Source of the DNA: Nannocystis pusilla
Lineage (GTDB): Bacteria > Myxococcota_A > Polyangia > Nannocystales > Nannocystaceae
Direction of reading: 5' to 3'
DNA length: 64,000 nucleotides
Assembly: GCF_026626665.1 (NCBI RefSeq)
Contig: NZ_JAPNKE010000002.1
Span: forward strand, 3,565,168-3,629,167
Under the pieces are notes generated by a model. The model was not told the DNA's origin and made no database searches. It was given only the letters and a program-made list of their open reading frames with translations. Shown here in pieces: positions 27,966-58,122 of this stretch. Position numbers and translations under genes: made by a program. Each line of letters starts with the position of its first letter. The stretch's first letter is position 1.

Positions 27966-28538
27966 ATGTCTTCGCTTATCGATTGCCCCGAATGCGCCTG
28001 TCTGTTCCGAGCCTCCGACGCGACCTGCCCGTTCTGCGGTCACGTTCAGCGTCACTCGCTCGGCGCGACGTGGGCCGCCGTCGCCTTCACCGCCAGTCTG
28101 GGAGTGATGGGCGCCGCCTGCCAGGTCGACCGCGACATCGGCGACGAGACGTCGGCCACCGCCGGCGACACCGTCGACACCGCCGATACGGTCGACACCT
28201 CGATGGTCTCCGAATCGACCAACCCCGGCGGTGACACCGTCGACCCGACGATCACCACCTCCAGCGACGGCGCCACCTATGCCGGCCCCGACGAGGAGTG
28301 GGACACGTGGGGCGACACCACCACCACGACCGGCGATACGTCGACCACGACGAACACCACGCCGGGCACGACCACGACCACGACGACCAACAGCACCAAC
28401 GACTCGTCCGACGCCAGCACCTACGCCGGCCCCGACGAGGAGTGGACCACGACCGACTGGACGACCTCCGACGACTCGTCCGACGCCAGCACCTACGCGG
28501 GCGCCGACTCGTGGGAGCCCAACGACCAGGGCCGCTGA
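27966..28538 (+). CDS. Zinc-ribbon / single-TM protein with Thr/Asp-rich repetitive extracytoplasmic region
   Basis: N-terminal CPEC…CPFC zinc ribbon. TM helix (ATWAAVAFTASLGVMGAAC). Then repeats DASTYAGPDEEW(T/D)T… and poly-Thr. Confidence 0.6.
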   Translation: MSSLIDCPECACLFRASDATCPFCGHVQRHSLGATWAAVAFTASLGVMGAACQVDRDIGDETSATAGDTVDTADTVDTSMVSESTNPGGDTVDPTITTSSDGATYAGPDEEWDTWGDTTTTTGDTSTTTNTTPGTTTTTTTNSTNDSSDASTYAGPDEEWTTTDWTTSDDSSDASTYAGADSWEPNDQGR

Positions 28539-28864: not shown

Positions 28865-30184
28865 TCACAGCGTGACCGTGCGCCCGGCCCCGAAGGGCTC
28901 CTCGAGCCGCGACACCCGCGGCTCCTCGATCGCCACCGGCCCGTGCTTCTCGCGCAGCTCCGGATCGACGTGCTCGCGGATCACCCGGAACAGGCCGTTG
29001 TCGAACGACTTGCCGCCGGCGCCGCGGACCTGCTCGATGCGCTCGCGCAGCCCCGCGCGCTCCATCATCACCGCGCGGTGGTGGCAGAACGGGTTGTTGC
29101 CGGGGCGGCCGAGCAGCGGCTCGGCGGCCGCGGTGCAGCCGGCCATGCACGTCTCGGCGTAGTAGCACTCGCGGCAATAGCCCCACAGGTCGTCGACCGT
29201 GCGCGCGCGGATATAGCCGAGCTGATACGACTCTTCCCAAACCTTCTTGATCCCGTGGACCCGCCAGTTGCCGCCGATGTTGGTGCCGCCGCCGAGGCTC
29301 GGGCAGTTCTTGATCGCCCCGTCGCTCTCGATGCCCATCACCGACACCCCGGCCGTGCAGCCGCGCCAGTGCTTGCGCTGCGAGCTCCGCAGGCGCCGCT
29401 CGAGCGGCCCGAAGTAGCCGAGGTTGTTGCCGGGCCACAGCCGGACCTTGCGGGCCTCGCAGCGGTCGAGCACCTTGTCGAGCGTCTCGAAGATGTCGAT
29501 GAACATGTGCGGCTGCAGCAAGATCTCCGGGTGATCGGCCGCATTGCCGTGCGGCACCGTGATCTGCAGCTGCCACGAATGGATGCCCTCGTCGGCCAGC
29601 AGCTCGAACAGCGGCAGCAGCTCGTGGCGGGTCAGCGCGTTGATCTGGGTGTTGCTGGCGATCTTGCCGCCCGCCGCGCGGATCCGCCGCATCGCCGCGA
29701 ACGCCCGCTTCCAGCTGCCCTGCACCCCGCGCAGGCGATCGTGCGTGTCCTCGAGGCCGTCGATCGAGAAGGTCACGCTGCCGATCCCGGCCTCGATCAT
29801 CGCCGCCGCCCGCTCCTCGGTCAGGTTGAGGCCGCCGGTCGTCATCGTGCAGGCCATCCCGGCCTCGCGGATCGCCCGGATGATGAGGATGAAGTCGTTG
29901 CGCAGGTAGGCCTCGCCGCCGATCAGCACCACCTCGCCGCACCCGAGGTCCGCCAGCTCGCGCACGACCTTCAGGCACTCCTCCGTCGACAGCTCGTCGG
30001 GCCGCTTGTGGCCCGCCCGCGGCCCGCAATGCGCACAGTGCTGATCGCACGCCAGGGTCAGCTCCCACACCGCCCAGCGCGGCGCCTTGGCCTCGCGGCG
30101 GTCCTGGATGCTCAGCCAGCGATTGGCTGGTGCGGGCAACGAGGCGACCACGGGCAAACGACGGCGCACATCACTTAAGCTCAT
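28865..30184 (-). CDS. Radical SAM enzyme with C-terminal SPASM domain (peptide/protein-modifying maturase-like)
   Basis: 439 aa. CDQHCAHC (CxxxCxxC) radical SAM cluster, GGEAYL motif, and a C-terminal Cys-rich SPASM region (CPSLGGG…YCRECYYAETCMAGC). Confidence 0.85.
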   Translation of the reverse strand: MSLSDVRRRLPVVASLPAPANRWLSIQDRREAKAPRWAVWELTLACDQHCAHCGPRAGHKRPDELSTEECLKVVRELADLGCGEVVLIGGEAYLRNDFILIIRAIREAGMACTMTTGGLNLTEERAAAMIEAGIGSVTFSIDGLEDTHDRLRGVQGSWKRAFAAMRRIRAAGGKIASNTQINALTRHELLPLFELLADEGIHSWQLQITVPHGNAADHPEILLQPHMFIDIFETLDKVLDRCEARKVRLWPGNNLGYFGPLERRLRSSQRKHWRGCTAGVSVMGIESDGAIKNCPSLGGGTNIGGNWRVHGIKKVWEESYQLGYIRARTVDDLWGYCRECYYAETCMAGCTAAAEPLLGRPGNNPFCHHRAVMMERAGLRERIEQVRGAGGKSFDNGLFRVIREHVDPELREKHGPVAIEEPRVSRLEEPFGAGRTVTL

Positions 30185-30353: not shown

Positions 30354-32846
30354 TCACGACTTGGCCGGCTCGTTCGCCGCGCCCGGCAGCAGGCGCGCCA
30401 GCGGCGAGCCGCGCAGCAGCCGTGCGAGCACCTCGGCCACGCTCTCGCCGCCGAGGATCGCCAGCGGGGCCATCGACTCCGCCATCTTCTCCGCCAGCGC
30501 CCGATCGCCGAACGCCTGCAGCGCGGCGATCAGGTCGGGCGAGACCGCCCGCGCCTTCTCGACCACCGCCGCGACCTCGGCCTGCAGCTCGCGCAGGCGC
30601 TGGTCGAGCTGCTGCTGCTGGACCGTCAGCTCGAGCGTCGCGGTCGCCTGGCGCCGGCCGAGCTCGGCCCCGTGGATCGCCCCGATCCGCTCCTGCTCGG
30701 CCAGCAGCGCCTGCTGCTGGCGCTCGTGCAAGTCGAGCTTGGCCGCCAGCTCGGCCAGCTAGGCGCTGCTGCTGCTCGCCCTCGCGGGTGCGCAGCGCGA
30801 TCGCCTGCTGCAGCGTCGCCGACTTGGCCTCCGCGACCTGCTGCGTGACCGCCTCGGCCTGGCGCACCATGTCGAGCCGGCGCTGCTCGGCGGCCAGCGA
30901 CAGCGTCTGCTGGACCGCGGCGTGCTGCGCCTGGACCAGCAGCTCGGCGATCGCCTCGTCGCCGATCGTCACCTCGAGCACCTCGACGTCGTACACCCGC
31001 ATCCCGTTCTCTTCGAAGCGCCGGCCCGGCCGCTTGCCGTCCTCGCCCGCGACCCCGAGGATCACGTCGCGCAGGATCGCCACCGAGTCGGCGTAGAACT
31101 GCTCGATGCCGTGGCGCTTGACCGCCGCGCGGACGAGCGAGCGCAGGTGGTCGGTCAGGAACTTGACGTATTCTCGACCTCGAACCACCGGTTCGGGTCG
31201 CCCTCGAAGTTGACGCGGTAGCTGAGCTGCAGCTGCACGCGCACGAGGTCGCGGGTCTCGACCTCCACCTGGTCGGACACCTTGTTGTTGAGCACCCGCA
31301 GGTAGACCGTCTTGAACAGGTTGTGCTCGGTCTTCGGCGTGCCGGTCGACAGCTCGAGCACCTGCAGCGTCTCGTCGTACTCGAGCAGGTGCGTGTGCGG
31401 CCCGGTCACGACCTTGCGCTCGCCGGTCTTCGACACCACCAGCACCGCGTAGCCGGTCCACACGTCGATGGCGACCGCGCCGTCGTAGCGGGTGTCGAGC
31501 ACGATGGTGCGCGGCCCGGTGAAGGTCTGGCTGCGCGTGAAGTCGTCGCCGGCGAACTCCGACGACGGCGGCGGAGGCGGCGGCGCGGCCGGTCCGCCCG
31601 GCGCCGGCGCGGCTTTCGGCGAGGCCGAGGCCCGCGCCGCCTGCACCGGCACCGAGGCCACCGCCGCGAACTCGGCGGCGATCTGCGGCGCGTTCTGCTG
31701 CGCGAGGCGGCGGTTGTAGTCGTAGGCCTCGCGGTTGCCGGGGAACCACAGCGAGACGGTCTTCGGATCGAGCACGCGGCGGATGATGAGCTCGATCCGC
31801 GGATCGGGCAGATAGATGGCCGGGCCGCGCTTCAGCGTGATGGTGCCCTTGTTGCGGTCGAGCACGTAGCGCGCCTCGCCGGCGGGGATCGCGACCGCGT
31901 AGTGCCGCTCCTGATCGCCGTACTTGATGATCGCGTGCTCCGGCCGCGGCAGGTAGATCATCGTGTCCTTGCCGGTGATGAACAGCTCGTCGCCGACCTT
32001 GTAGCGGACCCCGTTCTCCTCGTACGGCGCGATGACCTTGATGTAGAGGCCGGTGTTCTCGTTGAGCTCGATCGCGCGGAACTTGCGGGCGCCCCGCATC
32101 GCCACGAACGTCTCGGTCGGCTGCGGAAACACCACCGCAGGGCCCTGGATGTAGCGCTTGTTGCCGTTCTCGTCGAGCAGGATGCAGTACTCGAGCCGCT
32201 CCAACGTGATCGCCTCGCGCACGTAGTTGCCGTCGACGTCCGGCACCACCTCGACGCCGGTCGGCGGGATGTAGAACGCGACCTCGGTGCCGCGGATGAT
32301 CAGCAGCGTGCCCATCGTCAGGTCGGGCGGCCGCTGCACGTGGACCGCCTCGCCCTCGTCCGCCGCCGCCTCGGCGCGCATGCGCAGCACCGCGTTCTTC
32401 CAGTTGGTCTTGGCGCCCTCCTCGTCGTACACGCGCACGAGCAGGTATTGATTGGAGCGCAGGTGGTGGCCCTGGATGACGCGCACCATCTGCCCCGGCC
32501 ACAGCGCGAACGAGGCCGGCCCGGGGATGTTGACCTTGCGACCGGTGTCGAGCGACGGCAGGTTGTTGAGCGCGCCGGTCCGCGGGTGGCTCTTGTCGGT
32601 CGCCGGGTTCTTCAAACTCAGGTACCAGCCCTCGGGCGCGATCGACAGCGACTGGATCGCGCCGTCGAGCGGGCGCCGCTCGAACCGCTTGCTGCCGGCG
32701 TCGAACACCACGGGCGCGTCGGTGTTGGCGAGGCTCGTCTTGTGCGGCCCGACGTAGACGTTGATGTTGCCCTTCGTCTCGTCCAGGATGAAGGCGAACT
32801 CGTTCGGTGCGAGGACAAGGTCTCGTTCACGGCCTCGGTCGTTCAT
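30354..32846 (-). CDS. Major vault protein (MVP)-like protein: N-terminal vault repeats + SPFH/shoulder-like domain + C-terminal coiled coil (2 apparent frameshifts)
   Basis: From the ATG at 32846 with an AGGAG RBS: [39 protein letters not shown]… with repeated vault-type units (ORF 31155..33152 frame). SPFH-like segment (ORF 30280..32502 frame: …[26 protein letters not shown]…). Coiled-coil C-terminus (ORF 30354..30731 frame). Confidence 0.6.
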
Positions 32847-32949
32847 GGGGCTCCTGTCGCGACGGCGGACGTCGCGGGCCCCGAGCATACGAGCCGACGC
32901 ACCGCGACGGCAGCCCCGCGGCCGCGCCTCACGATCGCCAGAGGCGCGC

Positions 32950-33573
32950 TCACGCGCGCAGGACGAGCTCGAAGCCCCGGCGCACGCGCGCGGCGTAGCT
33001 GTCCCAGAAGCCCCGCTCGTCGGGCGTGCCCGCGTCGGCGCGGTCGAAGCGACCCTGCCACGCGACCACGCGCTCCGGCGCAGGCTTCCACAGGCCGGCG
33101 TCGACCAGCTCGACGACGAGACCGAGCGCCCCGTAGTCGCCCGCGCCCTCATAAAGATCGCCGTCGTCGGCGCGATCGAGGACCGCGCCCGCGCGCTCGC
33201 CCAGGGCGTCGATGCTCGCCTGCCCGCCGGGCACCCGCAGCAGCGCGTCGAACCGCGGGCCGTCGTTGTAGCCGCCGATCACCGCCTCCGCGGCCTCGCT
33301 GCGCGAGCGACCCTCGAGCGCGCCCTCGAGATCGCGCGCGAGCCCGGCCAGCACCTCGCGCGCGTCGGCCGGCAGCGCCTCGCCGTGCGCCAGCGCGGCG
33401 GCCACGTGGTCCGCCCCGCGCAGCTTCAGCACCACCGGTTGCAGCCACGCGACCAGGCCGATGCCCACCGCCAGCGCGACCGGCGGGGCGTCGATCGCGG
33501 GCAGCTTCACCAGGCTGCTCACGAGGTCGAGCGCGGAGTCGTTGTCGTAGAGGCCGTCGTCCCAGGTGCCCAT
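32950..33573 (-). CDS. DUF4259-like hypothetical protein
   Basis: N-terminus [18 protein letters not shown], characteristic of DUF4259. Confidence 0.5.
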
Positions 33574-39001: not shown

Positions 39002-40351
39002 TCAGAGCGAGTCGTCGATCACCTTGAGCGGCCCGAGCCCGAGCGGCTCGACCTGGGCGCGGATCGTCGCGGGATCGCCGACCAACACCACCTGCATCGC
39101 CGCCGGCTCGAACCACTGCGCCAGCGCGCGCTCGACGTCGTCGTCGCGCACGCCCCCGAGCCGGCGCAGCTCGGCCGCCAGGGCGTCGTCGGGCCGCCCC
39201 GCCACCTGCATCCGCGCCACCGCCTCGATGACGGCGGCGAGTCGCTGGTGCTCCAGCATGCGCTCGACCTGGAACGCGAGGCCGAGCAGGCGCAGCACGT
39301 CTCCGGTCAAGAAGCGGCCCTGCGCCGCCTTCAGCTGCGAGAGCATGGCCCGCAGCGACGAGCCCGTGGCGGCCGCGTCGACCTGGGTCTCGATCGCCAG
39401 CATTCCGCCGCCCCGGGCCGGCACGTGGCTCACCGCCACGCTGTACGTGTCGCCGCGATCGCGCCGAAGCACCTCGCGCAGAGCCGAGCCGACCACGGCC
39501 GAAGCCAGCTCGAGCGCGAGGTCGTCGGCGTCGCCGGCGATCGCTCGGCCCACCACGATGGCAGTCTGGGCCAGCCCCGGTCGTGGCACCACCAGCACCT
39601 CGCGGCGCGCCGTCGCTAGCTCGGACGCGGGCGCGGGCATGTCGGACGACCCCGGCCACTCGCCCAGCGCCCCCGCGGCCGCCCGCGCGAGCTCGGCCCG
39701 CGGCGCCTCCCCGACGACCACCAGCGCCGGCCGGGCCCGCAGCCACTGCTCTTGCGCCTTTCGGACATGTTCGATCGACCAGCCCGCCGTCGCGCGCGCC
39801 TCCCCGAGCGCGTCGAGCCGCGGGGCCAGGCGGCGCTGCAGCTGGTGCAGCCCCCGCCTCGCCGGATCGCCGTCGCGCCGCTGCTGGGCCGCCAGCCGCT
39901 CGCGCCGCAGCGCCTCGACGTCCTCCGCGGTGAGCTCCGCGCCGCGCAGCGCCGCGCTCACGATCGCCAGCGCCTCGCGCCACGCCGACGCCTCGACCTC
40001 GACCCGCAGCAGCGCCCCGTCTCCGAGCCACACCACCTCGATCGCCCCGCCGAGCTCGCCGAGCGCGTCCTCGACGGCCCGATCGGGCCCGCGGGCCAGC
40101 AGCTCGAGGGTGAAGCTCGCCAGCGGCGGATCGATCTCCGCACCTGTCCGCAAGACCAGCCCGATCGCCGTCGTCGGACCCGCCCGCCGCACGTGCAGCA
40201 GCGACGGCCCCAACCGCTCGATCCGCGGCGCGACCACCGGCGGCGCGTTCGTGGGCAGCTCCGGCGCCGTGTGCCGCCACGACTGATTGCTCGCGCACGC
40301 GCCGAGGAGCCACGCCAGCAACCACGCCCTTGCGACGCCCCCGCGCCTCAT
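39002..40351 (-). CDS. M16 family peptidase, second (non-HxxEH) subunit-like
   Basis: About 449 aa from MRRGGVARAWLLAWLLGACAS… with the M16 C-terminal-domain fold. The zinc motif is absent. The ATG overlaps the upstream stop (ATGA). Confidence 0.7.
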   Translation of the reverse strand: MRRGGVARAWLLAWLLGACASNQSWRHTAPELPTNAPPVVAPRIERLGPSLLHVRRAGPTTAIGLVLRTGAEIDPPLASFTLELLARGPDRAVEDALGELGGAIEVVWLGDGALLRVEVEASAWREALAIVSAALRGAELTAEDVEALRRERLAAQQRRDGDPARRGLHQLQRRLAPRLDALGEARATAGWSIEHVRKAQEQWLRARPALVVVGEAPRAELARAAAGALGEWPGSSDMPAPASELATARREVLVVPRPGLAQTAIVVGRAIAGDADDLALELASAVVGSALREVLRRDRGDTYSVAVSHVPARGGGMLAIETQVDAAATGSSLRAMLSQLKAAQGRFLTGDVLRLLGLAFQVERMLEHQRLAAVIEAVARMQVAGRPDDALAAELRRLGGVRDDDVERALAQWFEPAAMQVVLVGDPATIRAQVEPLGLGPLKVIDDSL

Positions 40352-41640
40352 CCGTCCCCCTCCGCCAGCACCGCCACGCGTCCTTCCGGCCGCAGCAGCT
40401 CGCGCGCGAAGCGAGCCACCTCCGCGGGCGTCACCGCCATCCACTCCGCGACGTCCTGCGCCCCGCCGAGCGGCTTGCCGGCGGCCGCCTCCGCCGCCAG
40501 CAGGGCCGCGCGGTCCTGCAGGTCTTGCTGCGCGCTGCGATGCTCCCGCGCGATCCGCAAGCGGGCGCGTCGCACCGCCGGCTCCGCCAGGGCTCCCTCG
40601 GCCACGCGAGCCAGCACGCGATCGACCTCCGCCACGAGGCGCTCCGGATCGCCGCCGACGCGGCCGATCACCCGCACGAAGAACACCGACTGATTCGGCA
40701 GACTGCGCTGCGTCGCCTGAAATCCGGCCGCCTCCGGCGGACCCTCCGCGCGCGCCAGCCGGACATATCCGCCGCGCTCCAGCGCCTCTGCCAGCACGTC
40801 GGCGGTCGCGTCGCCGTCGCCGTCGAGCTTCGGAGACGGCCAGGCCATCAGCACGGCAGGTGCCGCCCCCACCGGTCGCTCGGCCGTCACGCGCAGCTCG
40901 GTCGCTCGCCTCACCTGCGGCACCGTGCGCGCCGGCGGTCGCGGCTGCGCCGGCAGGCCGCCGAATTGCCGCTCGATCCACGCAGGCGTCTCCGCCGGCA
41001 GATCGCCGACCAGCACCAGCGTCGCGTTGCCCGGATGCACCCATCGACCGAGGAACGCGTCGACGTCGGCGATCGTCGCCGCCGCCAGGTCGTCCGCGCT
41101 GCCGATGATCGCCCCGTGATACGGGTGCCCCGCCGGGAACAACGCGGTCAGCGCCTGGATCTCGAGCCGCGCCAGCGGATCTTGCTCGGCCCGCTGGCGC
41201 CGCTCGTTGAGCACGATCCGTCGCACGCCCGCCAGCGTCGGCGCGCCGTGCTGCCCGCGCACGAAGCCGAGGCGATCGGCCTCGATCCACAGCACGTGCT
41301 CGGTCGCCTGCGCCGGCGCCGTATAATAATACTCCGTGGCATAAAACCCGGTCTCCGCGTTGTTCGCGTGGGCCGAAAGCGCGTACTCGAGGCCCTCGCG
41401 CCGGTTGCGATCGACGTGCGCCGAGCCCTCGTGCGCCACGTGCTCGACCACGTGGGCCAGCCCGCTGCGACCGCGCGGATCGTCGACGCTGCCCGCGTGG
41501 ACCCGCAGCCGCACCGCCACCAGCGGTGTCCGTCGGTCGTGGCGGAGGATCACCTCGAGCCCGTTGTCGAGCCGGTAGTGAGCGTCCTGCCCCGGCGTCA
41601 CGACCGGGGCGGCCAGCAGCGCGAGCACGGCGACGAGCAT
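40348..41640 (-). CDS. M16 family zinc metallopeptidase (insulinase-like) with inverted HxxEH motif
   Basis: 430 aa with a signal peptide. Zinc ligands in HVVEHVAHEG and the downstream E (NRREGLEY). Confidence 0.8.
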   Translation of the reverse strand: MLVAVLALLAAPVVTPGQDAHYRLDNGLEVILRHDRRTPLVAVRLRVHAGSVDDPRGRSGLAHVVEHVAHEGSAHVDRNRREGLEYALSAHANNAETGFYATEYYYTAPAQATEHVLWIEADRLGFVRGQHGAPTLAGVRRIVLNERRQRAEQDPLARLEIQALTALFPAGHPYHGAIIGSADDLAAATIADVDAFLGRWVHPGNATLVLVGDLPAETPAWIERQFGGLPAQPRPPARTVPQVRRATELRVTAERPVGAAPAVLMAWPSPKLDGDGDATADVLAEALERGGYVRLARAEGPPEAAGFQATQRSLPNQSVFFVRVIGRVGGDPERLVAEVDRVLARVAEGALAEPAVRRARLRIAREHRSAQQDLQDRAALLAAEAAAGKPLGGAQDVAEWMAVTPAEVARFARELLRPEGRVAVLAEGDG

Positions 41641-41739
41641 CCACCGTCAACGTACCGCGGCCTCACGCCGCGGCGCCGCGGTCGTCGATCGGACGCGGCG
41701 CCCGTCCTCACCCGCGGGCCGAGCCCACGCGTGCGCGCG

Positions 41740-42810
41740 TCACATCGGCCGTGGGCGGCACACCAGCAGCGTGTGGCTGACCCCGAGGTCGTCGTACTCG
41801 CGCTCGATCTCGAGGCCGGCCGCGTGGACGCACGCGAGGAACGTCGTCGAGCGGTACATCTGGCTGGTGCCGTTGGCGACCGCCGTGAAGTACAGCGACG
41901 TCATCTGCAGGCAGAAGCTGGCGGCCTCGAAGCGCTGGCGGTCCCAGAACGCCTCGAGGATGTAGATCTTGCAATTCGGCCCGGCCGCGGCGACGCAGCG
42001 GCGCAGGATCGACACGATCTCGGCCTCGGAGAAGCAGTCGAGGAACTGGCTCATCCAGATCGCGTCGAAGTCGGTCGGGACCGGCGAGCGCTCGTCGAGC
42101 AGGTCGGCCTCGTGGAAGCGCGCCCGCGCCAGCAGCCCCGCCTCGCGCAGGTTCTGCTCGGCGTTGCGGAGCTGCCCCGGCAGGTCCATCAGCGTCACCT
42201 CGACGTCGGGGTCGTGCCGCATGCACGCCGCCGCCCACTTGCCCGTGTTGCCGCCGATGTCGAGCAGCCGCTTCGGCTTGCCCGCGAACACCAGCGGCAG
42301 CGCCGCGCCGAACGCCCCGTCGGAATAGTAGTGGTCGAACTGGAACCACGACTTTCGCACCGACTCCGGCAATTGCGACAGCCCGGCGTAGACCGTCGGC
42401 CACTCGCCGAACACCTTGAGCCCCTCCGGCTTGCCCGACGCCACCGCCGCGTCGAGCCCCGCGATGCCGTGGTAGTTCACGTCGCGCACGAAGTCGAAGT
42501 TGGCGCGCGTCATCGGATCGTGCTGCACGTACACGCCGGTCTTGGTGATGCGATAGCGGCCATCGACCTCGGTCACGAGCCCGATCCCGAGCCCCGCCTC
42601 GAGCACCACGCGCGTGCCGTAGATCGGCAGCTCCGCCGCCGCCGCGACCTCCTCGAGGGTGAGGCCCTCGCGGCTGCGCTCGATGGCGAGGAGGATCCCG
42701 CGGTCGCGCAGCACGCGGGTGGCCTGGAACACGAACGGGGCGAACGCGATCCACTGCGCACGCTCCAGCGCCTCGAGCGCGGTGATGGGCTTGGGAACGT
42801 TTACGGACAT
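41740..42810 (-). CDS. Class I SAM-dependent O-methyltransferase (dimerisation domain + Methyltransf_2)
   Basis: About 356 aa from MSVNVPKPI…. SAM motif LLDIGGNTGKWAAA. Acidic-loop MDLPG. Typical plant/bacterial OMT C-terminus. Confidence 0.75.
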   Translation of the reverse strand: MSVNVPKPITALEALERAQWIAFAPFVFQATRVLRDRGILLAIERSREGLTLEEVAAAAELPIYGTRVVLEAGLGIGLVTEVDGRYRITKTGVYVQHDPMTRANFDFVRDVNYHGIAGLDAAVASGKPEGLKVFGEWPTVYAGLSQLPESVRKSWFQFDHYYSDGAFGAALPLVFAGKPKRLLDIGGNTGKWAAACMRHDPDVEVTLMDLPGQLRNAEQNLREAGLLARARFHEADLLDERSPVPTDFDAIWMSQFLDCFSEAEIVSILRRCVAAAGPNCKIYILEAFWDRQRFEAASFCLQMTSLYFTAVANGTSQMYRSTTFLACVHAAGLEIEREYDDLGVSHTLLVCRPRPM

Positions 42811-42830
42811 GCCGGGGGCCCGACTGTCGC

Positions 42831-43826
42831 TCACCACGGTCCCGCCGACGAGTGGCAGATGGCCCGGAGCGCGACGCGCGCCTTCGCCCGTCGCCCGGAG
42901 CCAGACCCGCGGCTACGGCCCCCCAGCCGCGCAGCGAGCCCGTCTCTCGCGCCCGCCGGCGGCCCGGACGCCCCCCTCCGCCCGACGCGACCCGGGCGAT
43001 CTCCCTCGCCTCCGCGCGGCTGTCGGATTTGAAACACCGCGTCGCGTTTCTCGACACTCGAGTCACGCGGCGACGCCCTGGTTCGACCTGCGGGAACGCG
43101 CCACCTCGAAGAAGTCGCAGCGTCCCGCACCCACCCTCGATCCCTCGTCGCACCGCTCACAGCGGCGAGCACCGGGAAACGAGCGGCATCAAGTCTCGGC
43201 GCTAGAACTCCGCTGGCGTGCCGCGTGCCCTGACCTTTTTCGAAAGTAATACGCGCGAACTGCCGCGTACTCGGAGATTCCCCTTCGGGAGATTCCAGAA
43301 GTGCAATTCGCCGGTGCAGTTCCTTCGTCGTCGGACTGCTCCGCTCGAACCACGCGCCCAGCGCATCCATGACCGCCCGTCGTGCCCTGACCAGACGAGC
43401 ATCATTGAGACCGAGCGTTTCCATGTCCTCGCCGGCTCGTGCATCGTCCGCGACGACCTCGCCCGACCCTGTGTATCGTAGGAAACGACGCGGATCCGGC
43501 CCCACGCCCCGGGCAGGATGGAGGAACAACGGAGTCTCCTGCTTGGCAACGTCACAGGTAATCCGGTCGGCGCAAGAACCGACGAGGTTGTTCCACTGGA
43601 ATACGCCACCTCCGCGCTCGCGCGGATGCCAGTGATCGATACGCATCTCGCTCTCGGTCGGCTGCACCCGTCGCTGACAGTAGGCGCAGAGCGACCCCTG
43701 ATCGCGCACGAGCGCATCTCGCATCGACTGCTTCTGATCGCCATGGACGCTGTCCCAATCGGCGCCAGGCGTCGTGGTGAGGGTCGTGAGACAGACAGGT
43801 GCAGGTCCTTTGGGCGCAGAGATCAT
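42831..43826 (-). CDS. HNH endonuclease (Septu PtuB-like); C-terminal extent uncertain
   Basis: From MISAPKGP…. HNH core CAYCQRRV…IDHWHPRERGG…WNNLVGSC. The start overlaps the ATPase stop (ATGA). The last about 150 aa of the ORF are GC-rich and low-complexity, so the real stop may be nearer 43200. The 5' part has lower GC. Confidence 0.55.
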   Translation of the reverse strand: MISAPKGPAPVCLTTLTTTPGADWDSVHGDQKQSMRDALVRDQGSLCAYCQRRVQPTESEMRIDHWHPRERGGGVFQWNNLVGSCADRITCDVAKQETPLFLHPARGVGPDPRRFLRYTGSGEVVADDARAGEDMETLGLNDARLVRARRAVMDALGAWFERSSPTTKELHRRIALLESPEGESPSTRQFARITFEKGQGTRHASGVLAPRLDAARFPVLAAVSGATRDRGWVRDAATSSRWRVPAGRTRASPRDSSVEKRDAVFQIRQPRGGEGDRPGRVGRRGASGPPAGARDGLAARLGGRSRGSGSGRRAKARVALRAICHSSAGPW

Positions 43827-45098
43827 ACGCCCCTCTCGAGATCGATCGCCGTCCTCGCGCGGACGATGTCCGGATCGTCCGGCCCGAGTTCTTGCTGCAA
43901 CTTCTGCCAAAGCACTTCAGCCTCGTCGAACGCGCCCCGATCGATCCGGTCGAAGAGCCGGCGAACCTCGTCTCGCGTCTCGACCGGCCGCTCCGGTACG
44001 CCGAACACATCTTCGAGCAGGCTGTTGGAGTCCCGTCCATGCGTGTGCTCGACCCTTCCGATGCGGCCGTCCGGGTGAAGCACGCGGATCCACTCTGGCT
44101 CGGCCGTGGACAACACTTGCGGCGAATGAGTCGTGGCGATGAACTGGATCCTGGGAACACGCGCCGCAGGTTCGGGAGCACGGATCGTTGCCAGCTCGGA
44201 TGCAGGTGGAGATCGAGCTCGTCGATGAGCACGACCCCGGACGTCTCTTTGGCCGCGTTCTCGCCGTGGTGGGGATTGAGCCGCGCCGCCCGCCATGCGA
44301 TGTCGCCAGCGAGGGCCAACAAGTTACGGTAACCGTCCGAGAGGACGCGGAAAGGCAGGGTGCGGCCATCCTTGAAGTCGACCCGCAGCTCTTCGTGATT
44401 GACGGAGTAATAAAAACGCTTCGCGCCCTCCACACAATCGACGATCGCATTCGCCACGACCTCGAGCAGCGGCTCCCGAACCGCAGCCACCGATAGGTTG
44501 GCTTCCACGGCGCGCGAAATTTCCTGCAAGCGCACGGACTCTCGCCAGGACATCCAGCTCTCGAGGAGTTGATACCCCACGGCCGCCTGGAGACAATGGC
44601 GATATCCGTCGAGAACGCTCAGAAGCTTCGTCGTTTCCCGACCTTCGTTTCCGCTCCACAGCCTGCCCGTCCGATAATATGCGATGAGCGGGAGCTCGAT
44701 CTGCTGGCCTCTCCCGGTCGAAGACACGGCCCGCCTCGCGGTGTCAAAGAGGGATCCTTGCGCCCATTCCGCACTATCGGGGGTCACGGCCTCCCGGTGC
44801 AGCCCCGCGCCCGGCCCCTCGATCTGGCCGCGAACGCGGGTCTGGCCCGCGACCTCGGGCTCGGCACGCCGTTGACGACCCGCCGGATCAAGCGCCGGTC
44901 ATCCGCTAAGAGTTTCCCATCGTGCCCGCGATTTTGCGTCGCCATCGTCCAGATCGCAAGCAACGCCGCGATCCCATCCAGCACACTGGTCTTGCCAGAT
45001 CCATTAATCCCCACGAACAGCGTGCACTCCGGGTGGAGCTCGCACTTGAGTGCCTCGAAGCCGCGGAAGTTCGTGAGCTCGATGTCGCGGATCTGCAC
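43823..45098 (-). CDS. AAA_21/AAA_15-type ABC-like ATPase (Septu PtuA-like), about 2 apparent frameshifts
   Basis: N-terminus VQIRDIELTNFRGFEAL…FVGINGSGKTSVLDGIA (Walker A) in ORF 44784..45221. Middle in ORF 43552..44787 (…VVLIDELDLHLHPSWQ, Walker B/D-loop). C-terminus in ORF 43823..44296 (…QFIATTHSPQVL H-loop). GC drops to about 50-60% here versus about 72% in the flanks. Confidence 0.55.
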
Positions 45099-45275
45099 GC
45101 CTCTTCCGTACCACGTCGGCCGCCATGCGGCCAGATACCGCGAGGGTCCCTGCACCCGTCGAGACGAGCATCCCGCCAGCGACGAGCTCGTCCTTGGGGC
45201 TCGGGCGTCGAATGCACTCATGTCTCATCCCGAGAGCCCGCCCGCTCCGCGCGGGCGGCGACTCGTTCCGCCCCG

Positions 45276-46496
45276 TCACACCGGCGGCGCGCAGTGCCTT
45301 ACGATCTGCGCCACCGCCTGCGCGCGCGGCAGCACCTGCTGCTCCTCGCGGATCCGCAGCGTCAGCGCCTCGCTGCTCGCCTCGCGCGCTCCGATCACCG
45401 CCAGCATCGGCACTCCTTGCGCGTGCGCCTCCGCCACGCGGCGGGCCAGCGTCTCGCGGCGGTCGTCGAGCTCGGCCCGGATCCCCGCCGCGCGCAGCTC
45501 GGCCACTGCCGTCTCTGCCGCCGCTTGCTGGGCCGGGGCCACCGGCGCCACCACCACTTGCACGGGCGCCAGCCAGGCCGGCAGCGCGCCCGCGTGGTGC
45601 TCGAGCACGATCGCCAGGAAGCGCTCGAGGCTGCCGTAGATCGCCCGGTGCAGCATCGCCGGGCGGCGGCGCTGACCGGCCTCGTCGATGTAATGCAGCC
45701 CGAAGCGCTCCGGCAGGTTGAAGTCGAGCTGGATCGTCCCGCACTGCCACGAGCGGCCGAGGCGGTCGCGCAGCGAGAACTCGAGCTTCGGCCCGTAGAA
45801 CGCCCCCTCGCCCGGCTGCACCACGCAATCGAGCCCCGCCTCGCGGGCCGCCGCAGCCAGCTCCGCCTCCGCGCGGTCCCACAGCGCATCGTCGCCGACC
45901 CGCTCCGGCGGGCGCGTCGACAGCCCGACCGCGAAGTCATCGAACCCGAAGCCCGCGTAGAACCTGCGGGCGCCCTGGCAGAAGCGCACGATCTCGGCCG
46001 CGATCTGGTCGGGAGCGCAGAACACGTGGCCGTCGTCCTGCGTGAACTGGCGCAGGCGGAACAGCCCGTGCAGCGTCCCGCTCGGCTCGTCGCGGTGGCA
46101 CAGGCCGAACTCGCACAGGCGCAGCGGCAGGTCGCGGTACGACAGCGCGCTGCGCTGGGCGATCTGGATGTGACCCGGGCAGCTCACCGGCTTCAGCGCC
46201 GCGCAGCAGCCCTCGTCGGCGACTGCGAACATTCCCTGACGGAAATGCTGCCAGTGGCCGCTCTTCTCCCAGATCGGCTGTCGCAGCAATTGCGGCGTGC
46301 GGACCTCGTGATAGCCGTCGGCGCTGGCGCGGCGGCGGGCCGCGTCTTCCAGCGCGCGGGCGAGGACCAGGCCGCGGGGGTGCCAGAACACCATCGCCGG
46401 CGCCTCTTCCTGCAAGTGGAACAGGCCGAGGCGCGGGCCGAGGGCGCGGTGGTCGTGGGCGTCGAGGACGGAATGGGGGCTGATGTCGTGGCTCAT
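45276..46496 (-). CDS. Truncated threonyl-tRNA synthetase paralog (catalytic + anticodon-binding domains only; no TGS/editing N-domains)
   Basis: 406 aa from MSHDISPH…. Class II motifs 2 (FRLRQFTQDDGHVFC) and 3 (GTIQLDFNLPERFGL…AMLHRAIYGSLERF). ThrRS zinc ligands (C…H…H). The protein begins right at the catalytic core. Confidence 0.8.
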   Translation of the reverse strand: MSHDISPHSVLDAHDHRALGPRLGLFHLQEEAPAMVFWHPRGLVLARALEDAARRRASADGYHEVRTPQLLRQPIWEKSGHWQHFRQGMFAVADEGCCAALKPVSCPGHIQIAQRSALSYRDLPLRLCEFGLCHRDEPSGTLHGLFRLRQFTQDDGHVFCAPDQIAAEIVRFCQGARRFYAGFGFDDFAVGLSTRPPERVGDDALWDRAEAELAAAAREAGLDCVVQPGEGAFYGPKLEFSLRDRLGRSWQCGTIQLDFNLPERFGLHYIDEAGQRRRPAMLHRAIYGSLERFLAIVLEHHAGALPAWLAPVQVVVAPVAPAQQAAAETAVAELRAAGIRAELDDRRETLARRVAEAHAQGVPMLAVIGAREASSEALTLRIREEQQVLPRAQAVAQIVRHCAPPV

Positions 46497-46814
46497 GGCG
46501 GCGGTCTCCGGGGGTGAAAGGACCGGCCGGACGGAGCGACGCCACCATGCGCGCAAAAGCCCCGCCGGCTCGGGCGGGGCTTCGCAGGGCGTGTGTCTCG
46601 GGCTCTCAGCGCACGCGCACGCGACCGACCCCACCCGGAAGGGTGGTGGTGGTAGTCGCGGTGGTGGCGCGCCGGAGCATCGATTTGGGGATACACGCGG
46701 CCTCTGGAGCGGTCAAGGCGAGCGCTCGTGCGGAAGCTCGTGGGCCCGTCCATCCCACACCTGCGATTGCGATCACCTCCTTTCGCGTGTCGCCGATCAC
46801 CGCGTCGCCCGCGA

Positions 46815-47320
46815 CGACATGTCCCTTCGGACATATTATAATGGGGCCGACCCCGGCGCGCCGCCTGGCGCCCGCGCCGAACCTGTCCCTTCAGCCAGCC
46901 ACCGCTTACCCGGCGAACCTCGTCATGCCGCAGCCGGCCGGGCCGAGCCCAGGCTGTTCGCCGCCGCGTCCCCGCCTCGGCACCCGCGCTCGCTGCCCGC
47001 GCGCGGCCGTCGCCCGCCTCCCGAGCTCGGCCCGTTCGCCGGCGCGTCCCCGCCTCGGCACCCGCGCTCCATGCCCGCTCGCCTCACCCGGCTCGCCGCC
47101 GCAGCCGCCGCGACATGTCTCTTCGGCCAGCCTCGATCGCCCCGCCGGCGATCGCCCTCGCCGACCTCCGCCGCGCACCCCGCCGCTGCAGACCGCCCCG
47201 GACATGTCCCTTCGGTCAGCTCGCCCTCCCCTCGGGCCGCGGCGAGCACGCCGTTCCGGCGGCCACCGGCGCCCGCGCGGGGCAGCGCCGGGTCCTGCCC
47301 GACCTGTCTCTTCGACCAGC
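46815..47320. repeat. Intergenic repeat array (GACATGTCCCTTCGG units) plus internal about 80 bp direct repeat
   Basis: cgacatgtcccttcggacat…gaacctgtcccttcagcc…cgacatgtctcttcggcc…ggacatgtcccttcggtc…cgacctgtctcttcgacc. Direct repeat gcgtccccgcctcggcacccgcgctc at about 46967 and about 47047. Confidence 0.8.

Positions 47321-55410: not shown

Positions 55411-58122
<2,712 letters not shown>

Follow-up and report, generated by a model that had tools for sequence, protein, structure and literature searches.

The DNA analysed here, a 64-kb window from a Nannocystis species (Myxococcota), carries on its minus strand genes for a threonyl-tRNA synthetase (ThrRSc), a Septu pair, an O-methyltransferase (OMT) and a pair of M16 proteins. 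This arrangement raises two questions: do these genes act together, and what is the role of a synthetase which begins only at its catalytic core?

Gene inventory and the cluster question

The gene list, the coordinates and the strand given in the initial annotation were all confirmed. They are presented below together with the elements located upstream of ThrRSc and the evidence for each.

46711–46716, minus strand: −35-like hexamer TTGACC, a putative promoter element (position relative to the leader)
46688–46693, minus strand: −10-like hexamer TATCCC, a putative promoter element
46606–46680, minus strand: leader peptide ORF MLRRATTATTTTTLPGGVGRVRVR, 24 codons plus stop (same-type ORF in 30 of 30 core-only loci)
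46628–46636, minus strand: segment 2, GGGTGGGGT (2:3 pairing across 27 leaders, RNAalifold, folds)
46555–46580, minus strand: hairpin 3:4, GCCCCGCC-CGAGCC-GGCGGGGC, then TTTT (folds, pairing in 27 leaders)
46526–46537, minus strand: segment 5 (anti-Shine-Dalgarno), GCTCCGTCCGGC (4:5 pairing, covariation, duplex energy)
46506–46509, minus strand: segment 6, the Shine-Dalgarno GGAG of ThrRSc (folds)
45276–46496, minus strand: ThrRSc, core-only threonyl-tRNA synthetase, 406 aa (Pfam, NCBIfam, alignment)
43072–45266, minus strand: strain-specific insertion with the Septu pair, outside the ThrRSc unit (comparison with relatives)
41740–42837, minus strand: class I O-methyltransferase, FlxJ-like (domain and family models)
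40348–41640, minus strand: M16a peptidase, HVVEH motif, signal-like N-terminus (domain models, sequence)
39002–40351, minus strand: M16b, non-catalytic M16 partner, predicted lipoprotein with lipobox LLGAC (domain models, sequence)

The Septu pair is an insertion and no part of the ThrRSc unit. This strain-specific segment spans 2.2 kb of low GC content (64%), and at this site N. exedens has 313 bp and N. punicea ~990 bp. Both PtuA and PtuB match PADLOC models. The first PtuA ORF lies 54 bp beyond ThrRSc, and PtuA itself (~45098–43829) is split among three reading frames, implying two frameshifts. PtuB starts at 43826 and leaves no gap to the OMT, as its frame stays free of stops as far as 42834, where the codon next to the OMT start GTG (42837–42835) lies. 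Farther on, 99 bp separate the OMT from M16a, and the M16b start overlaps the M16a stop by ATGA. The OMT comprises Methyltransf_2 and a dimerisation domain and reaches 491 bits with the FlxJ family, under its cut-off of 560, while M16b shows an M16_C domain only and no HxxEH. Domain models and motif thus agree with the methyltransferase and the overlapping pair of HxxEH peptidase and non-catalytic partner called earlier.

M16B pairs act in some RiPP pathways, and the initial annotation, which called such pairs typical of RiPP leader processing, had suggested a possible natural-product or immunity locus. In such a locus ThrRS, OMT and M16 would belong together, with a Thr-rich ORF as the precursor and the M16 pair as its leader peptidase. 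Co-directional genes with short gaps and the 24-aa Thr-rich ORF at 46606–46680 speak for this reading, which we nevertheless regard as close to untenable, since the comparative sequence data already contradict it. The ThrRS–OMT–M16 adjacency occurs only in two close Nannocystis genomes, where variable DNA (313 bp, ~990 bp or 2.2 kb) breaks it, and is absent in a third Nannocystis MAG and in every other genus. Elsewhere, the neighbours of ThrRS are unrelated (P450, kinases, transporters, PurL, WS/DGAT) and include no PKS or NRPS; no modifying enzymes are common to ThrRSc loci. Both M16 proteins carry export signals, a hydrophobic N-terminus in M16a and the lipobox in M16b, which misfit a cytoplasmic leader peptidase. 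A search of two flanks for short Cys/Thr-rich ORFs had been advised: the interval 41641–41739 holds no short ORF of interest, and the flanks contain a single short Thr-rich ORF, at 46606–46680. ORFs of this type, however, go with ThrRSc in 30 of 30 loci regardless of the neighbours, also where OMT and M16 are missing. A functional cluster of ThrRS, Septu, OMT and M16 is rejected because of the Septu insertion and because no neighbour conserved with ThrRSc across genera was found.

The likely unit is instead an autonomous 1.47-kb module (~46741–45267, minus strand) which consists of a putative promoter, leader ORF, RNA relay and core-only ThrRS. Homology with N. punicea is limited to 46741–45271, with variable DNA on either side of the module.

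A threonyl-tRNA synthetase without its N-terminal domains

ThrRSc is composed of the Pfam domains tRNA-synt_2b and HGTP_anticodon. It scores 453 bits with the NCBIfam thrS equivalog (cut-off 383.65) and covers model positions 170–549 of 565. Residues 242–613 of E. coli ThrRS align to it without gaps, so the protein starts at the class-II catalytic core, as first proposed. The zinc ligands C334, H385 and H511 and the remaining catalytic and active-site residues are conserved; with the HGTP_anticodon match, this substantiates the zinc site and anticodon-binding domain which had been described as retained. TGS and editing domains had been reported missing, and tblastn indeed detected neither in the whole 64-kb window (best E 0.25). 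The same search was negative for N-terminal domains in an adjacent frame upstream of 46496, an option raised earlier. Judged by its sequence, ThrRSc should be catalytically competent as a ThrRS but lack cis-editing.

Proteins of this family measure ~400 aa, keep the catalytic and zinc sites intact and form one clade in a neighbour-joining tree. They are present in every myxobacterial genus sampled. Core-only loci beyond Myxococcota were found in sporadic carriers, namely one Mesorhizobium, Desertibaculum, a Steroidobacteraceae MAG and a Holophagaceae MAG. By type, ThrRSc is bacterial (proteobacterial), and its hosts are free-living with very large genomes.

The leader peptide and the chain of RNA helices

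Seven of the 24 leader codons encode threonine, at 46660–46665 and 46642–46656 (segment 1). A Thr-rich ORF of 16–28 codons, 5–8 of them for threonine, precedes ThrRSc in 30 of 30 family loci, with a density of at least 4–8 Thr per 8 residues in these core-only loci. In controls that required 5 or more Thr within 8 residues, such an ORF turned up at 2 of 45 loci with full-length thrS and in 33 of 1200 random windows. The constant partnership with ThrRSc and the location within conserved alternative RNA helices identify the ORF at 46606–46680 as a regulatory leader and not a precursor peptide.

In 27 of 31 loci, the leader start codon follows a TTGAC/TTGC hexamer at a distance of 35–39 nt, and the −35 box of the window lies ~36 nt upstream of the ORF start. 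A spacer of 17 nt separates TTGACC from TATCCC, which ends 7 nt ahead of the leader ATG; the window sequence contains no Shine-Dalgarno before this ATG. The proximity of both hexamers to the ATG implies a leaderless or near-leaderless leader mRNA, although promoter use and leaderless start are putative.

Behind the putative promoter, the RNA can form the mutually exclusive helices 1:2, 2:3, 3:4, 4:5 and 5:6, the last of which reaches the Shine-Dalgarno of ThrRSc. Compared with shuffled sequences, the fold of the leader RNA scores z = −5.9. Segment 2 has two alternative partners: segment 1 with the Thr codons (helix 1:2) and segment 3 (helix 2:3, the anti-terminator). Helix 2:3 is 82% paired across 27 leaders versus 42–56% when slid, and RNAalifold returned it as the sole helix; its covariation amounts to a single pair with both sides changed. 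Hairpin 3:4 (−18.1 kcal/mol; 84% paired across the 27 leaders) sequesters segment 4. With the TTTT behind it, it resembles a weak intrinsic terminator, although in the window it falls outside the consensus of a terminator scan and the U-tract is restricted to some lineages and absent in many. Segment 5 can pair with segment 4 or with the Shine-Dalgarno (5:6). Helix 4:5 is 83% paired, with six pairs altered on both sides and a covariation of 0.256 versus 0.175 in shuffles (reached by 0 of 500). Its duplex in the window amounts to −23.0 kcal/mol; against shuffled segment 5, the mean z is −2.27, with z < −1.64 in 20 of 27 leaders. For 2:3, 3:4 and 4:5 together, sliding reduces pairing from 82–84% in register to 34–56%. 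Covariation is limited because most helices are conserved in sequence. No Rfam family, Thr_leader included, matches the leader RNA, and no paper describing this switch was found in the literature.

In the free-RNA fold, the ThrRSc Shine-Dalgarno GGAG is sequestered. When a ribosome is set on the third Thr codon, folding pairs the 5′ arm of the terminator upstream in nearly all leaders. In equilibrium folding of this stalled state, the Shine-Dalgarno is still mostly paired; a control attributes the predicted drop in the cost of opening the ribosome binding site mostly to masking of the 5′ leader, with only ~1.2 kcal/mol gained by forcing 2:3.

Proposed mechanism, alternatives and known systems

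We consider it probable that the leader acts as an attenuator which senses Thr-tRNA and controls an auxiliary ThrRS devoid of editing. Transcription would start at, or just ahead of, the leader ATG, and a ribosome would translate the 24 codons with their seven Thr codons. With plentiful Thr-tRNA(Thr) it would run through, 1:2, 3:4 and 5:6 would form and ThrRSc would be off; in the window strain, hairpin 3:4 with its U4 tail may terminate transcription too. When Thr-tRNA(Thr) is scarce, be it through threonine starvation or through inhibition or failure of another ThrRS, the ribosome would stall at the Thr codons and leave segment 2 free to pair with 3. Segment 4 would then pair with 5, the Shine-Dalgarno would be exposed and ThrRSc made. 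If true, ThrRSc is an inducible back-up or booster for tRNA(Thr) charging. The evidence fits, and sharpens, the earlier suggestion of a regulatory or editing-deficient duplicate, its status as a duplicate being putative.

ThrRSc could also be the only housekeeping ThrRS of Nannocystis and other Myxococcota, autoregulated by its leader through tRNA(Thr) charging, with editing absent or provided in trans. Its occurrence in all myxobacterial genera sampled and its score above the thrS cut-off would fit, and leader attenuation is compatible with an essential synthetase, as in E. coli pheST, the sole enzyme of its kind. Core-only sole enzymes also exist, for example in Ca. Providencia siddallii (410 aa) and yeast mitochondria (PDB match). 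We judge this reading unlikely given the variable DNA on the flanks of the module and the sporadic carriers, which come from groups normally endowed with full-length thrS and in which ThrRSc would have to be an extra copy. Swiss-Prot, moreover, has entries of full-length ThrRS from Myxococcus, Sorangium and Anaeromyxobacter.

An intrinsic or self-resistance enzyme against borrelidin- or obafluorin-like inhibitors, induced by a block of the sensitive housekeeping enzyme, is a possibility on the doubtful side. The induction logic fits, since a drop in Thr-tRNA would turn ThrRSc on, and resistant second synthetase copies such as ObaO and TrpRS1 are a known kind. Y313F and M332V are family-wide and affect borrelidin/obafluorin contact residues (PMC9880928, PMC4389257), but these changes are conservative and were called against a comparison set of mostly Betaproteobacteria. 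The known positions H309, G463 and L489 are unchanged, 0 of 30 loci lie in or beside a biosynthetic cluster, and ObaO, like the S. parvulus enzyme, is full-length. A non-translational role (amino-acid:carrier-protein ligase, Ap4A synthesis or tRNA-dependent secondary metabolism) appears very improbable. Truncated synthetase paralogs often take new roles (reviewed in PMC9437257, PMC4787780); ThrRSc, however, retains its anticodon-binding domain together with every residue for tRNA, ATP, Thr and Zn, its proposed Thr-codon sensor would link expression to tRNA(Thr) charging, and conserved partner genes are lacking.

The attenuated auxiliary enzyme which we favour shares features with several known systems. 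Resistance enzymes against obafluorin (ObaO) and borrelidin (S. parvulus ThrRS) are extra copies, as ThrRSc would be, and ThrRSc has its own contact changes Y313F and M332V; those enzymes are full-length, linked to biosynthetic clusters and marked by G463S or fourth-subsite changes, whereas ThrRSc has neither these changes nor such linkage. The layout of core and anticodon-binding domain recurs in crenarchaeal ThrRS-cat, yeast mitochondrial MST1 and Ca. Providencia siddallii ThrRS (PDB 3ugq, 3a31). These are the sole enzymes of an archaeon, an organelle and a reduced genome, some with a separate editing protein, in contrast to ThrRSc with its free-living large-genome hosts, its own putative Thr sensor and no linked editing gene in the 64-kb window.

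Duplicated ThrRS expressed under stress are exemplified by plasmid-borne low-zinc thrS copies and by Anabaena T2, whose editing is impaired (PMC4787780). Both are full-length and belong to zinc-starvation gene sets, whereas ThrRSc keeps its Zn ligands, has no metal-related neighbours and occupies another branch of the neighbour-joining tree. In B. subtilis, a drop in tRNA(Thr) charging acts through a T-box to induce thrZ, which encodes a normally silent second ThrRS. The logic by which uncharged tRNA(Thr) turns on an extra ThrRS would be shared, ThrRSc being a putative auxiliary; ThrZ, however, is a full-length enzyme, editing domain included, and its control element is a T-box riboswitch instead of a leader peptide.

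The leader-peptide attenuators (E. coli thrL/thrABC and pheM/pheST; the Streptomyces trpS, leuS, alaS and thrS leaders) likewise combine a short ORF rich in cognate codons with alternative helices which let ribosome stalling alter downstream expression. In Streptomyces lividans, leaderless leader peptides have been reported ahead of synthetase genes, thrS among them; as with ThrRSc, they appear leaderless, target a synthetase and often miss the U-tract (PMC8079986). The ThrRSc leaders differ in their run of 5–8 Thr codons, compared with two in S. lividans thrL, in a chain of exclusive helices which appears to extend beyond the terminator-like hairpin as far as the Shine-Dalgarno (4:5, 5:6), and in the regulated gene itself, a core-only ThrRS.

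The core-only synthetase and its family

ThrRSc, a threonyl-tRNA synthetase (ThrRS) of 406 residues, is encoded in a G+C-rich window (72-78%). Genes on the minus strand were called from third-position GC and profile searches, and their start and stop codons were checked.

45276-46496, minus strand: threonyl-tRNA synthetase (ThrRSc), from third-position GC and profile searches

The protein is 95% identical to that of the Nannocystis exedens DSM 71 locus and 94% identical to that of the N. punicea FL3 locus, which assigns the window to a Nannocystis species (Myxococcota). Pfam profiles delimit a class II core (PF00587, 2e-44) and an HGTP anticodon-binding domain (PF03129, 1e-16), and the NCBIfam thrS equivalog TIGR00418 is matched at 453 bits (cut-off 383.65) over model positions 170-549 of 565. 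Residues 242-613 of E. coli ThrRS align gaplessly with ThrRSc, whose N-terminus consists of 13 residues ahead of E. coli residue 242. In this alignment (E. coli numbering) the zinc triad C334, H385 and H511 is kept. The Thr/ATP residues R363, Q381, D383, Y462, K465, Q484 and R520 are all conserved, as are E365, G463, Q479, T482 and L489.

The initial annotation had described a ThrRS starting at the catalytic core, with zinc site and anticodon domain, and the profile matches and the alignment confirm this. Its second claim, the absence of the TGS (N1) and editing (N2) domains, also holds: with the N-terminal domains of thirteen full-length ThrRS as queries, nothing was found in the 64-kb window (best E 0.25), and an upstream adjacent frame, where these domains might have lain, does not contain them. 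The same thirteen enzymes revealed no N-terminal ThrRS domains within 6 kb of 30 family loci. No tRNA genes were found in the window. By analogy, ThrRSc should charge tRNA(Thr) but without cis-editing of Ser-tRNA(Thr). An N-terminal deletion of E. coli ThrRS likewise charges tRNA(Thr) and has lost cis-editing of Ser-tRNA(Thr). Editing activity is null in an Anabaena T2 mutant from which subdomains N1 and N2 are missing (PMC4787780).

Protein searches returned a large set of proteins of 394-426 residues, each comprising only core and anticodon domains, from Sorangium, Myxococcus, Stigmatella, Corallococcus, Archangium, Pyxidicoccus, Melittangium and many metagenomes. The locus survey used one-genome-per-species data and covers 30 core-only loci, the rest being full-length (mostly Betaproteobacteria, 48-54% identity). 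Upstream of the core-only genes there is no long open reading frame (ORF) extension, whereas at least 242 open codons precede the core at the full-length loci. Beyond Myxococcota, core-only loci occur in a Steroidobacteraceae MAG, Desertibaculum, a Holophagaceae MAG and one Mesorhizobium; we infer that ThrRSc must be an extra copy in these sporadic carriers. Cluster look-ups of the full-length ThrRS representatives gave no myxobacterial names, and the full-length representative P0250, grouped with a Myxococcaceae sequence, was rejected as a myxobacterial thrS owing to its actinobacterial-looking sequence.

In a neighbour-joining tree (no bootstrap), the core-only family loci group as a single clade whose sister is proteobacterial full-length ThrRS. 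Further representatives of about 400-415 residues (P0138, P0190, P0125 and P0194) branch outside this leader-linked clade, and the editing domain has therefore been lost more than once, several times. Among the short enzymes outside the clade are the only ThrRS of Ca. Providencia siddallii and, from a Myxococcaceae MAG, a second type of about 400 residues.

Plasmids of PLSDB, searched by tblastn with ThrRSc as the query, contained only full-length thrS of at most 53% identity and no family member. Of the 719 records matched, 569 are from Klebsiella. Two plasmids were inspected, and the thrS of both is full-length: on Klebsiella pneumoniae pBio30 it adjoins a metal ABC transporter, an M14 carboxypeptidase, dihydroorotase and hemB, and on a Thioclava plasmid it adjoins hisI-type cyclohydrolase genes. 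These copies look like zinc-starvation paralog islands, recalling Anabaena T2.

The threonine leader and its RNA

A short ORF upstream of ThrRSc, 46606-46680 on the minus strand (ATG at 46680, TGA at 46606), encodes MLRRATTATTTTTLPGGVGRVRVR; seven of its 24 codons specify threonine, and it is followed by a GC hairpin and then TTTT. Each core-only locus was scanned, up to 450 nt upstream, for a short ORF in which 8 residues include at least 4 Thr; a leader of this kind is present at 30 of 30, in most cases containing 5-8 Thr, for instance MSLVSTTTTTTTTRTGG in Byssovorax, VITTTTTGTTTRFGG in M. xanthus, MSQVRATTTTTTTTRLGG in Desertibaculum and MANLATTTTTTTAHGG in Holophagaceae. In controls that required at least 5 Thr in 8, such ORFs were recovered at 2 of 45 full-length thrS loci and in 33 of 1200 random windows of 520 nt. 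The leader is the sole Thr-run ORF of this kind in the window.

At 27 of 31 loci, a TTGAC/TTGC hexamer is located 35-39 nt ahead of the leader start codon. In the window, the putative promoter comprises two elements:

46716-46711, minus strand: -35-like TTGACC, the conserved hexamer (putative promoter)
46693-46688, minus strand: -10-like TATCCC, after a 17-nt spacer from TTGACC (putative promoter)

Only 7 nt separate TATCCC from the leader ATG, with no Shine-Dalgarno sequence (SD) between them, a geometry from which the leader mRNA is expected to be leaderless or near-leaderless; the promoter upstream of the leader is presumably in use. Homology with N. punicea starts at window position 46741 and ends at 45271. 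Promoter, leader and gene thus constitute a 1.47-kb module amid variable DNA.

The variable stretch just upstream of the promoter has its own repeats. Five exact plus-strand copies of a 13-nt motif, CMTGTCYCTTCRR, lie at 46818-47315; the window holds 16 copies with at most one mismatch (0.66 expected), others being at 57680, 59573(-), 61225, 61846, 48816, 1017(-) and 25210. At 46818 the motif forms a perfect hairpin (ATGTCC-CTTC-GGACAT) next to TATAAT, and it may represent either a repeated operator or an element of the REP-like kind. The same intergenic stretch contains a 62-nt direct repeat (46943-47004 and 47021-47082, 87% identical, 78-nt spacing), and this repeat region is absent in N. 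punicea.

For the leader RNA we number six segments: the Thr codons (1), four segments downstream (2-5) and the SD of ThrRSc (6); x:y denotes the helix between two segments. The folding energy of the 211-nt leader is -116 kcal/mol (z = -5.9 vs shuffles). Folded individually, the leaders (n = 31) share a layout in which the Thr codons pair with the following G-rich stretch (1:2), a strong hairpin 3:4 (GCCCCGCC...GGCGGGGC) comes next, and a last hairpin places a CUCCGUC-type segment 5 over the GGAG SD. Misaligned loops limited RNAalifold, applied to a MAFFT alignment, to four pairs, those of the 2:3 core; the named helices were hence counted directly on a 27-leader alignment. Paired cells amount to 84% for 3:4, 82% for 2:3 (42-56% when slid), 83% for 4:5 (34-55% when slid) and 79% for the 5:6 core. 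The helices are mostly conserved in sequence, which keeps covariation modest, and kinship among the leaders inflates the shuffle statistics. Covariation of 4:5 is 0.256 vs 0.175 shuffled (0 of 500 reach it), with six pairs altered on both sides, and the alignment-free energy of the 4:5 duplex, -17 to -27 kcal/mol in most leaders, has a mean z of -2.27 against composition-matched shuffles of segment 5 (20 of 27 below -1.64). Helix 5:6 is weaker than 4:5.

The 1:2, 2:3 and 3:4 complementarities are conserved and mutually exclusive, one of them overlapping the Thr codons, while 4:5 and 5:6 lengthen the chain. When a ribosome is modelled as occupying the third Thr codon of the run, nearly all leaders have the 5′ arm of 3:4 paired to upstream sequence. 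There is good support for a Thr-codon leader that has alternative helices. Under the proposed mechanism, unimpeded leader translation would lead to 1:2, 3:4 and 5:6, the off state. A ribosome stalled at the leader Thr codons would free segment 2; in this stalled state 2:3 and 4:5 would form and the SD would open. The relay reaching the SD is supported by complementarity and covariation, not by thermodynamic models. At equilibrium the SD is largely paired in every state (P(unpaired) 0.11, rising to 0.19-0.23). The predicted cost of opening the ribosome-binding site (RBS) falls from 9.3 kcal/mol in free RNA to 5.2 in the stalled state with 2:3 forced, but the control, stalled with 3:4 forced, is already at 6.4, and the drop is mostly due to masking of the 5′ leader.

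Transcription termination at 3:4 would be optional and vary by lineage. The U-tract after this hairpin occurs only in some lineages, namely the window (UUUU), a Polyangiaceae MAG, Desertibaculum and Mesorhizobium. In the window strain, 3:4 has an 8-bp GC stem followed by UUUU and falls below the consensus terminator scan criteria; the U4 tail may also terminate transcription in the off state. SD sequestration may be the main output. Rfam matched the leader with nothing at gathering thresholds and only at chance level (E up to 10).

A second Thr-codon run in the window (28317-28388) was rejected as a leader because it lies inside a Thr/Ser/Asp-rich protein of 190 residues. The N-terminus of this protein (27966-28538, plus strand) is rich in Cys (CPECAC, CPFC); the protein also has a lipobox-like segment and long Thr/Ser/Asp-rich repeats, and its gene is convergent with that of a radical SAM/SPASM enzyme (28865-30184, minus strand). 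Further along, a 707-residue protein (31155-33278, minus strand) carries Major Vault Protein repeat and shoulder domains (Vault_3 1e-9, MVP_shoulder 8e-7), which are unusual in bacteria.

Genes downstream of ThrRSc

Downstream of ThrRSc, the following genes lie on the same strand:

about 45098-43829, minus strand: PtuA, in three frame segments (PADLOC PtuA models)
from 43826, minus strand: PtuB (PADLOC)
41740-42837, minus strand: O-methyltransferase (OMT; profile searches)
40348-41640, minus strand: M16a, catalytic M16 peptidase (HVVEH)
39002-40351, minus strand: M16b, non-catalytic M16 partner (M16_C domain only)

The Septu pair noted initially is present, with adjacent genes matching the PADLOC models of PtuA (best 4.7e-65) and PtuB (4.7e-34). 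PtuA profile positions 2-75, 121-317 and 317-429 fall in three different frames, which amounts to two frameshifts and reflects either a decaying defence system (pseudogene) or indel errors in the assembly. The PtuB frame has no stop across the insertion boundary (43071) and stays open to 42834. In place of 43072-45266, N. exedens has 313 bp and N. punicea about 990 bp, and the inserted segment has 64% GC vs about 73%. Given this size variation, the GC content and the split PtuA, the Septu pair is a strain-specific insertion, probably decaying; it occupies a variable spot directly after the ThrRS stop codon.

The tandem M16 pair was likewise correctly described: the M16b ATG overlaps the M16a stop, HVVEH is present in M16a, and M16b has M16_C only and no HxxEH. 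The wider reading of ThrRS, OMT and M16 pair as a small natural-product or immunity locus fails, in view of the insertion, of adjacency confined to close relatives, of the lack of a cross-genus neighbour and of the exported M16 pair. OMT and the M16 pair follow ThrRS only in two close relatives, N. exedens and N. punicea, and not in a third Nannocystis MAG or in other genera. When the flanking ORFs of the 30 loci were clustered, ThrRS alone was common across genera; neighbours elsewhere are P450s, a Ser/Thr kinase, an OPT transporter, PurL, WS/DGAT, an SCFA transporter, a histidine kinase, an FGGY kinase and a sigma-54 activator. Nor does the M16 pair suit a leader peptidase of RiPP pathways. 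It shares with M16B leader peptidases the HxxEH subunit and the non-catalytic partner, but not the cytoplasmic location or the adjacent precursor and modifying enzymes: M16a has a hydrophobic, signal-like N-terminus and M16b a lipobox (LLGAC), from which the pair is predicted to be exported, and profile searches found no modifying enzymes near it. In the 99-nt spacer between OMT and M16a there is a GC-rich inverted repeat but no ORF worth noting, and the flanks hold no precursor ORF. With 491 bits, OMT stays below the cut-off of 560 set for the NCBIfam FlxJ-family methyltransferase model; it is FlxJ-like, yet no other annotated biosynthetic gene lies near it in the window.

Proposed role and relation to known systems

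As stalling would open the SD, we propose that ThrRSc is made when Thr-tRNA(Thr) is scarce. Tentatively, and with considerable doubt, we suggest that myxobacteria and a few acquirers keep an emergency, proofreading-less ThrRS, unlocked by a near-leaderless poly-Thr leader through a six-segment relay to the SD, its role being relaxed Thr/Ser fidelity in starvation or tolerance to ThrRS-targeting antibiotics. These two roles are proposed because ThrRSc would be made just when Thr-charged tRNA is limiting and serine competes best. If the first is true, relaxed fidelity would be deliberate and would sustain translation through starvation, which is also the trigger of myxobacterial development. If the second is true, tolerance would be built in against ThrRS inhibitors met in soil and during predation.

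A resistance role against ThrRS inhibitors is possible for ThrRSc. Relative to the full-length set, the family-wide substitutions are Y313F, M332V, M374F, V376L, G378Q, L493F, N502G, I578L, Y580R, H585A and S586H; the first two favour such a role, since Y313 and M332 contact obafluorin and borrelidin (PMC9880928; PMC4389257). However, H309, G463 and L489 are unchanged in ThrRSc and no family locus is linked to a biosynthetic gene cluster, so that, with only Y313F and M332V differing, the enzyme departs from self-resistance of the ObaO/borrelidin type, which is marked by changes at H309, G463 or L489 or in fourth-subsite residues along with such linkage.

Whichever role applies, an editing-less ThrRS induced under threonine limitation bears on regulated mistranslation and on intrinsic resistance to ThrRS inhibitors. 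Duplicates of aminoacyl-tRNA synthetases are common, yet few of them are understood. Here the Thr-codon sensor provides a readable control logic: it tells when the cell wants ThrRSc, and it makes the role directly testable. The unit is 1.47 kb in size, conserved phylum-wide and apparently transferable. If the relay to the RBS is real, it would show how leader-peptide attenuation may operate with U-tract-less hairpins in high-GC bacteria (Actinobacteria, Myxococcota). For annotation, the locus warns that Thr-rich leader ORFs beside aminoacyl-tRNA synthetase paralogs may be misread as RiPP precursors, and co-directional neighbours as clusters.

Both ingredients are known, namely leader-peptide control of aminoacyl-tRNA synthetase genes and ThrRS without the editing domain. 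What appears new is their strict phylum-wide combination, core-only ThrRS plus Thr leader, with an apparent relay to the SD; in the literature we found no description of a core-only bacterial ThrRS family with a Thr leader, the nearest precedent being S. lividans thrL. In function, the closest analogue of ThrRSc is thrZ of B. subtilis, a silent second ThrRS which is T-box-induced when charging drops; ThrRSc would be its editing-less, leader-peptide counterpart. In Streptomyces lividans, leaderless leader peptides precede aminoacyl-tRNA synthetase genes, including a two-Thr thrL before thrS (PMC8079986). The ThrRSc leader resembles these in being a probably leaderless or near-leaderless mRNA, judging by its promoter geometry, ahead of an aminoacyl-tRNA synthetase gene.
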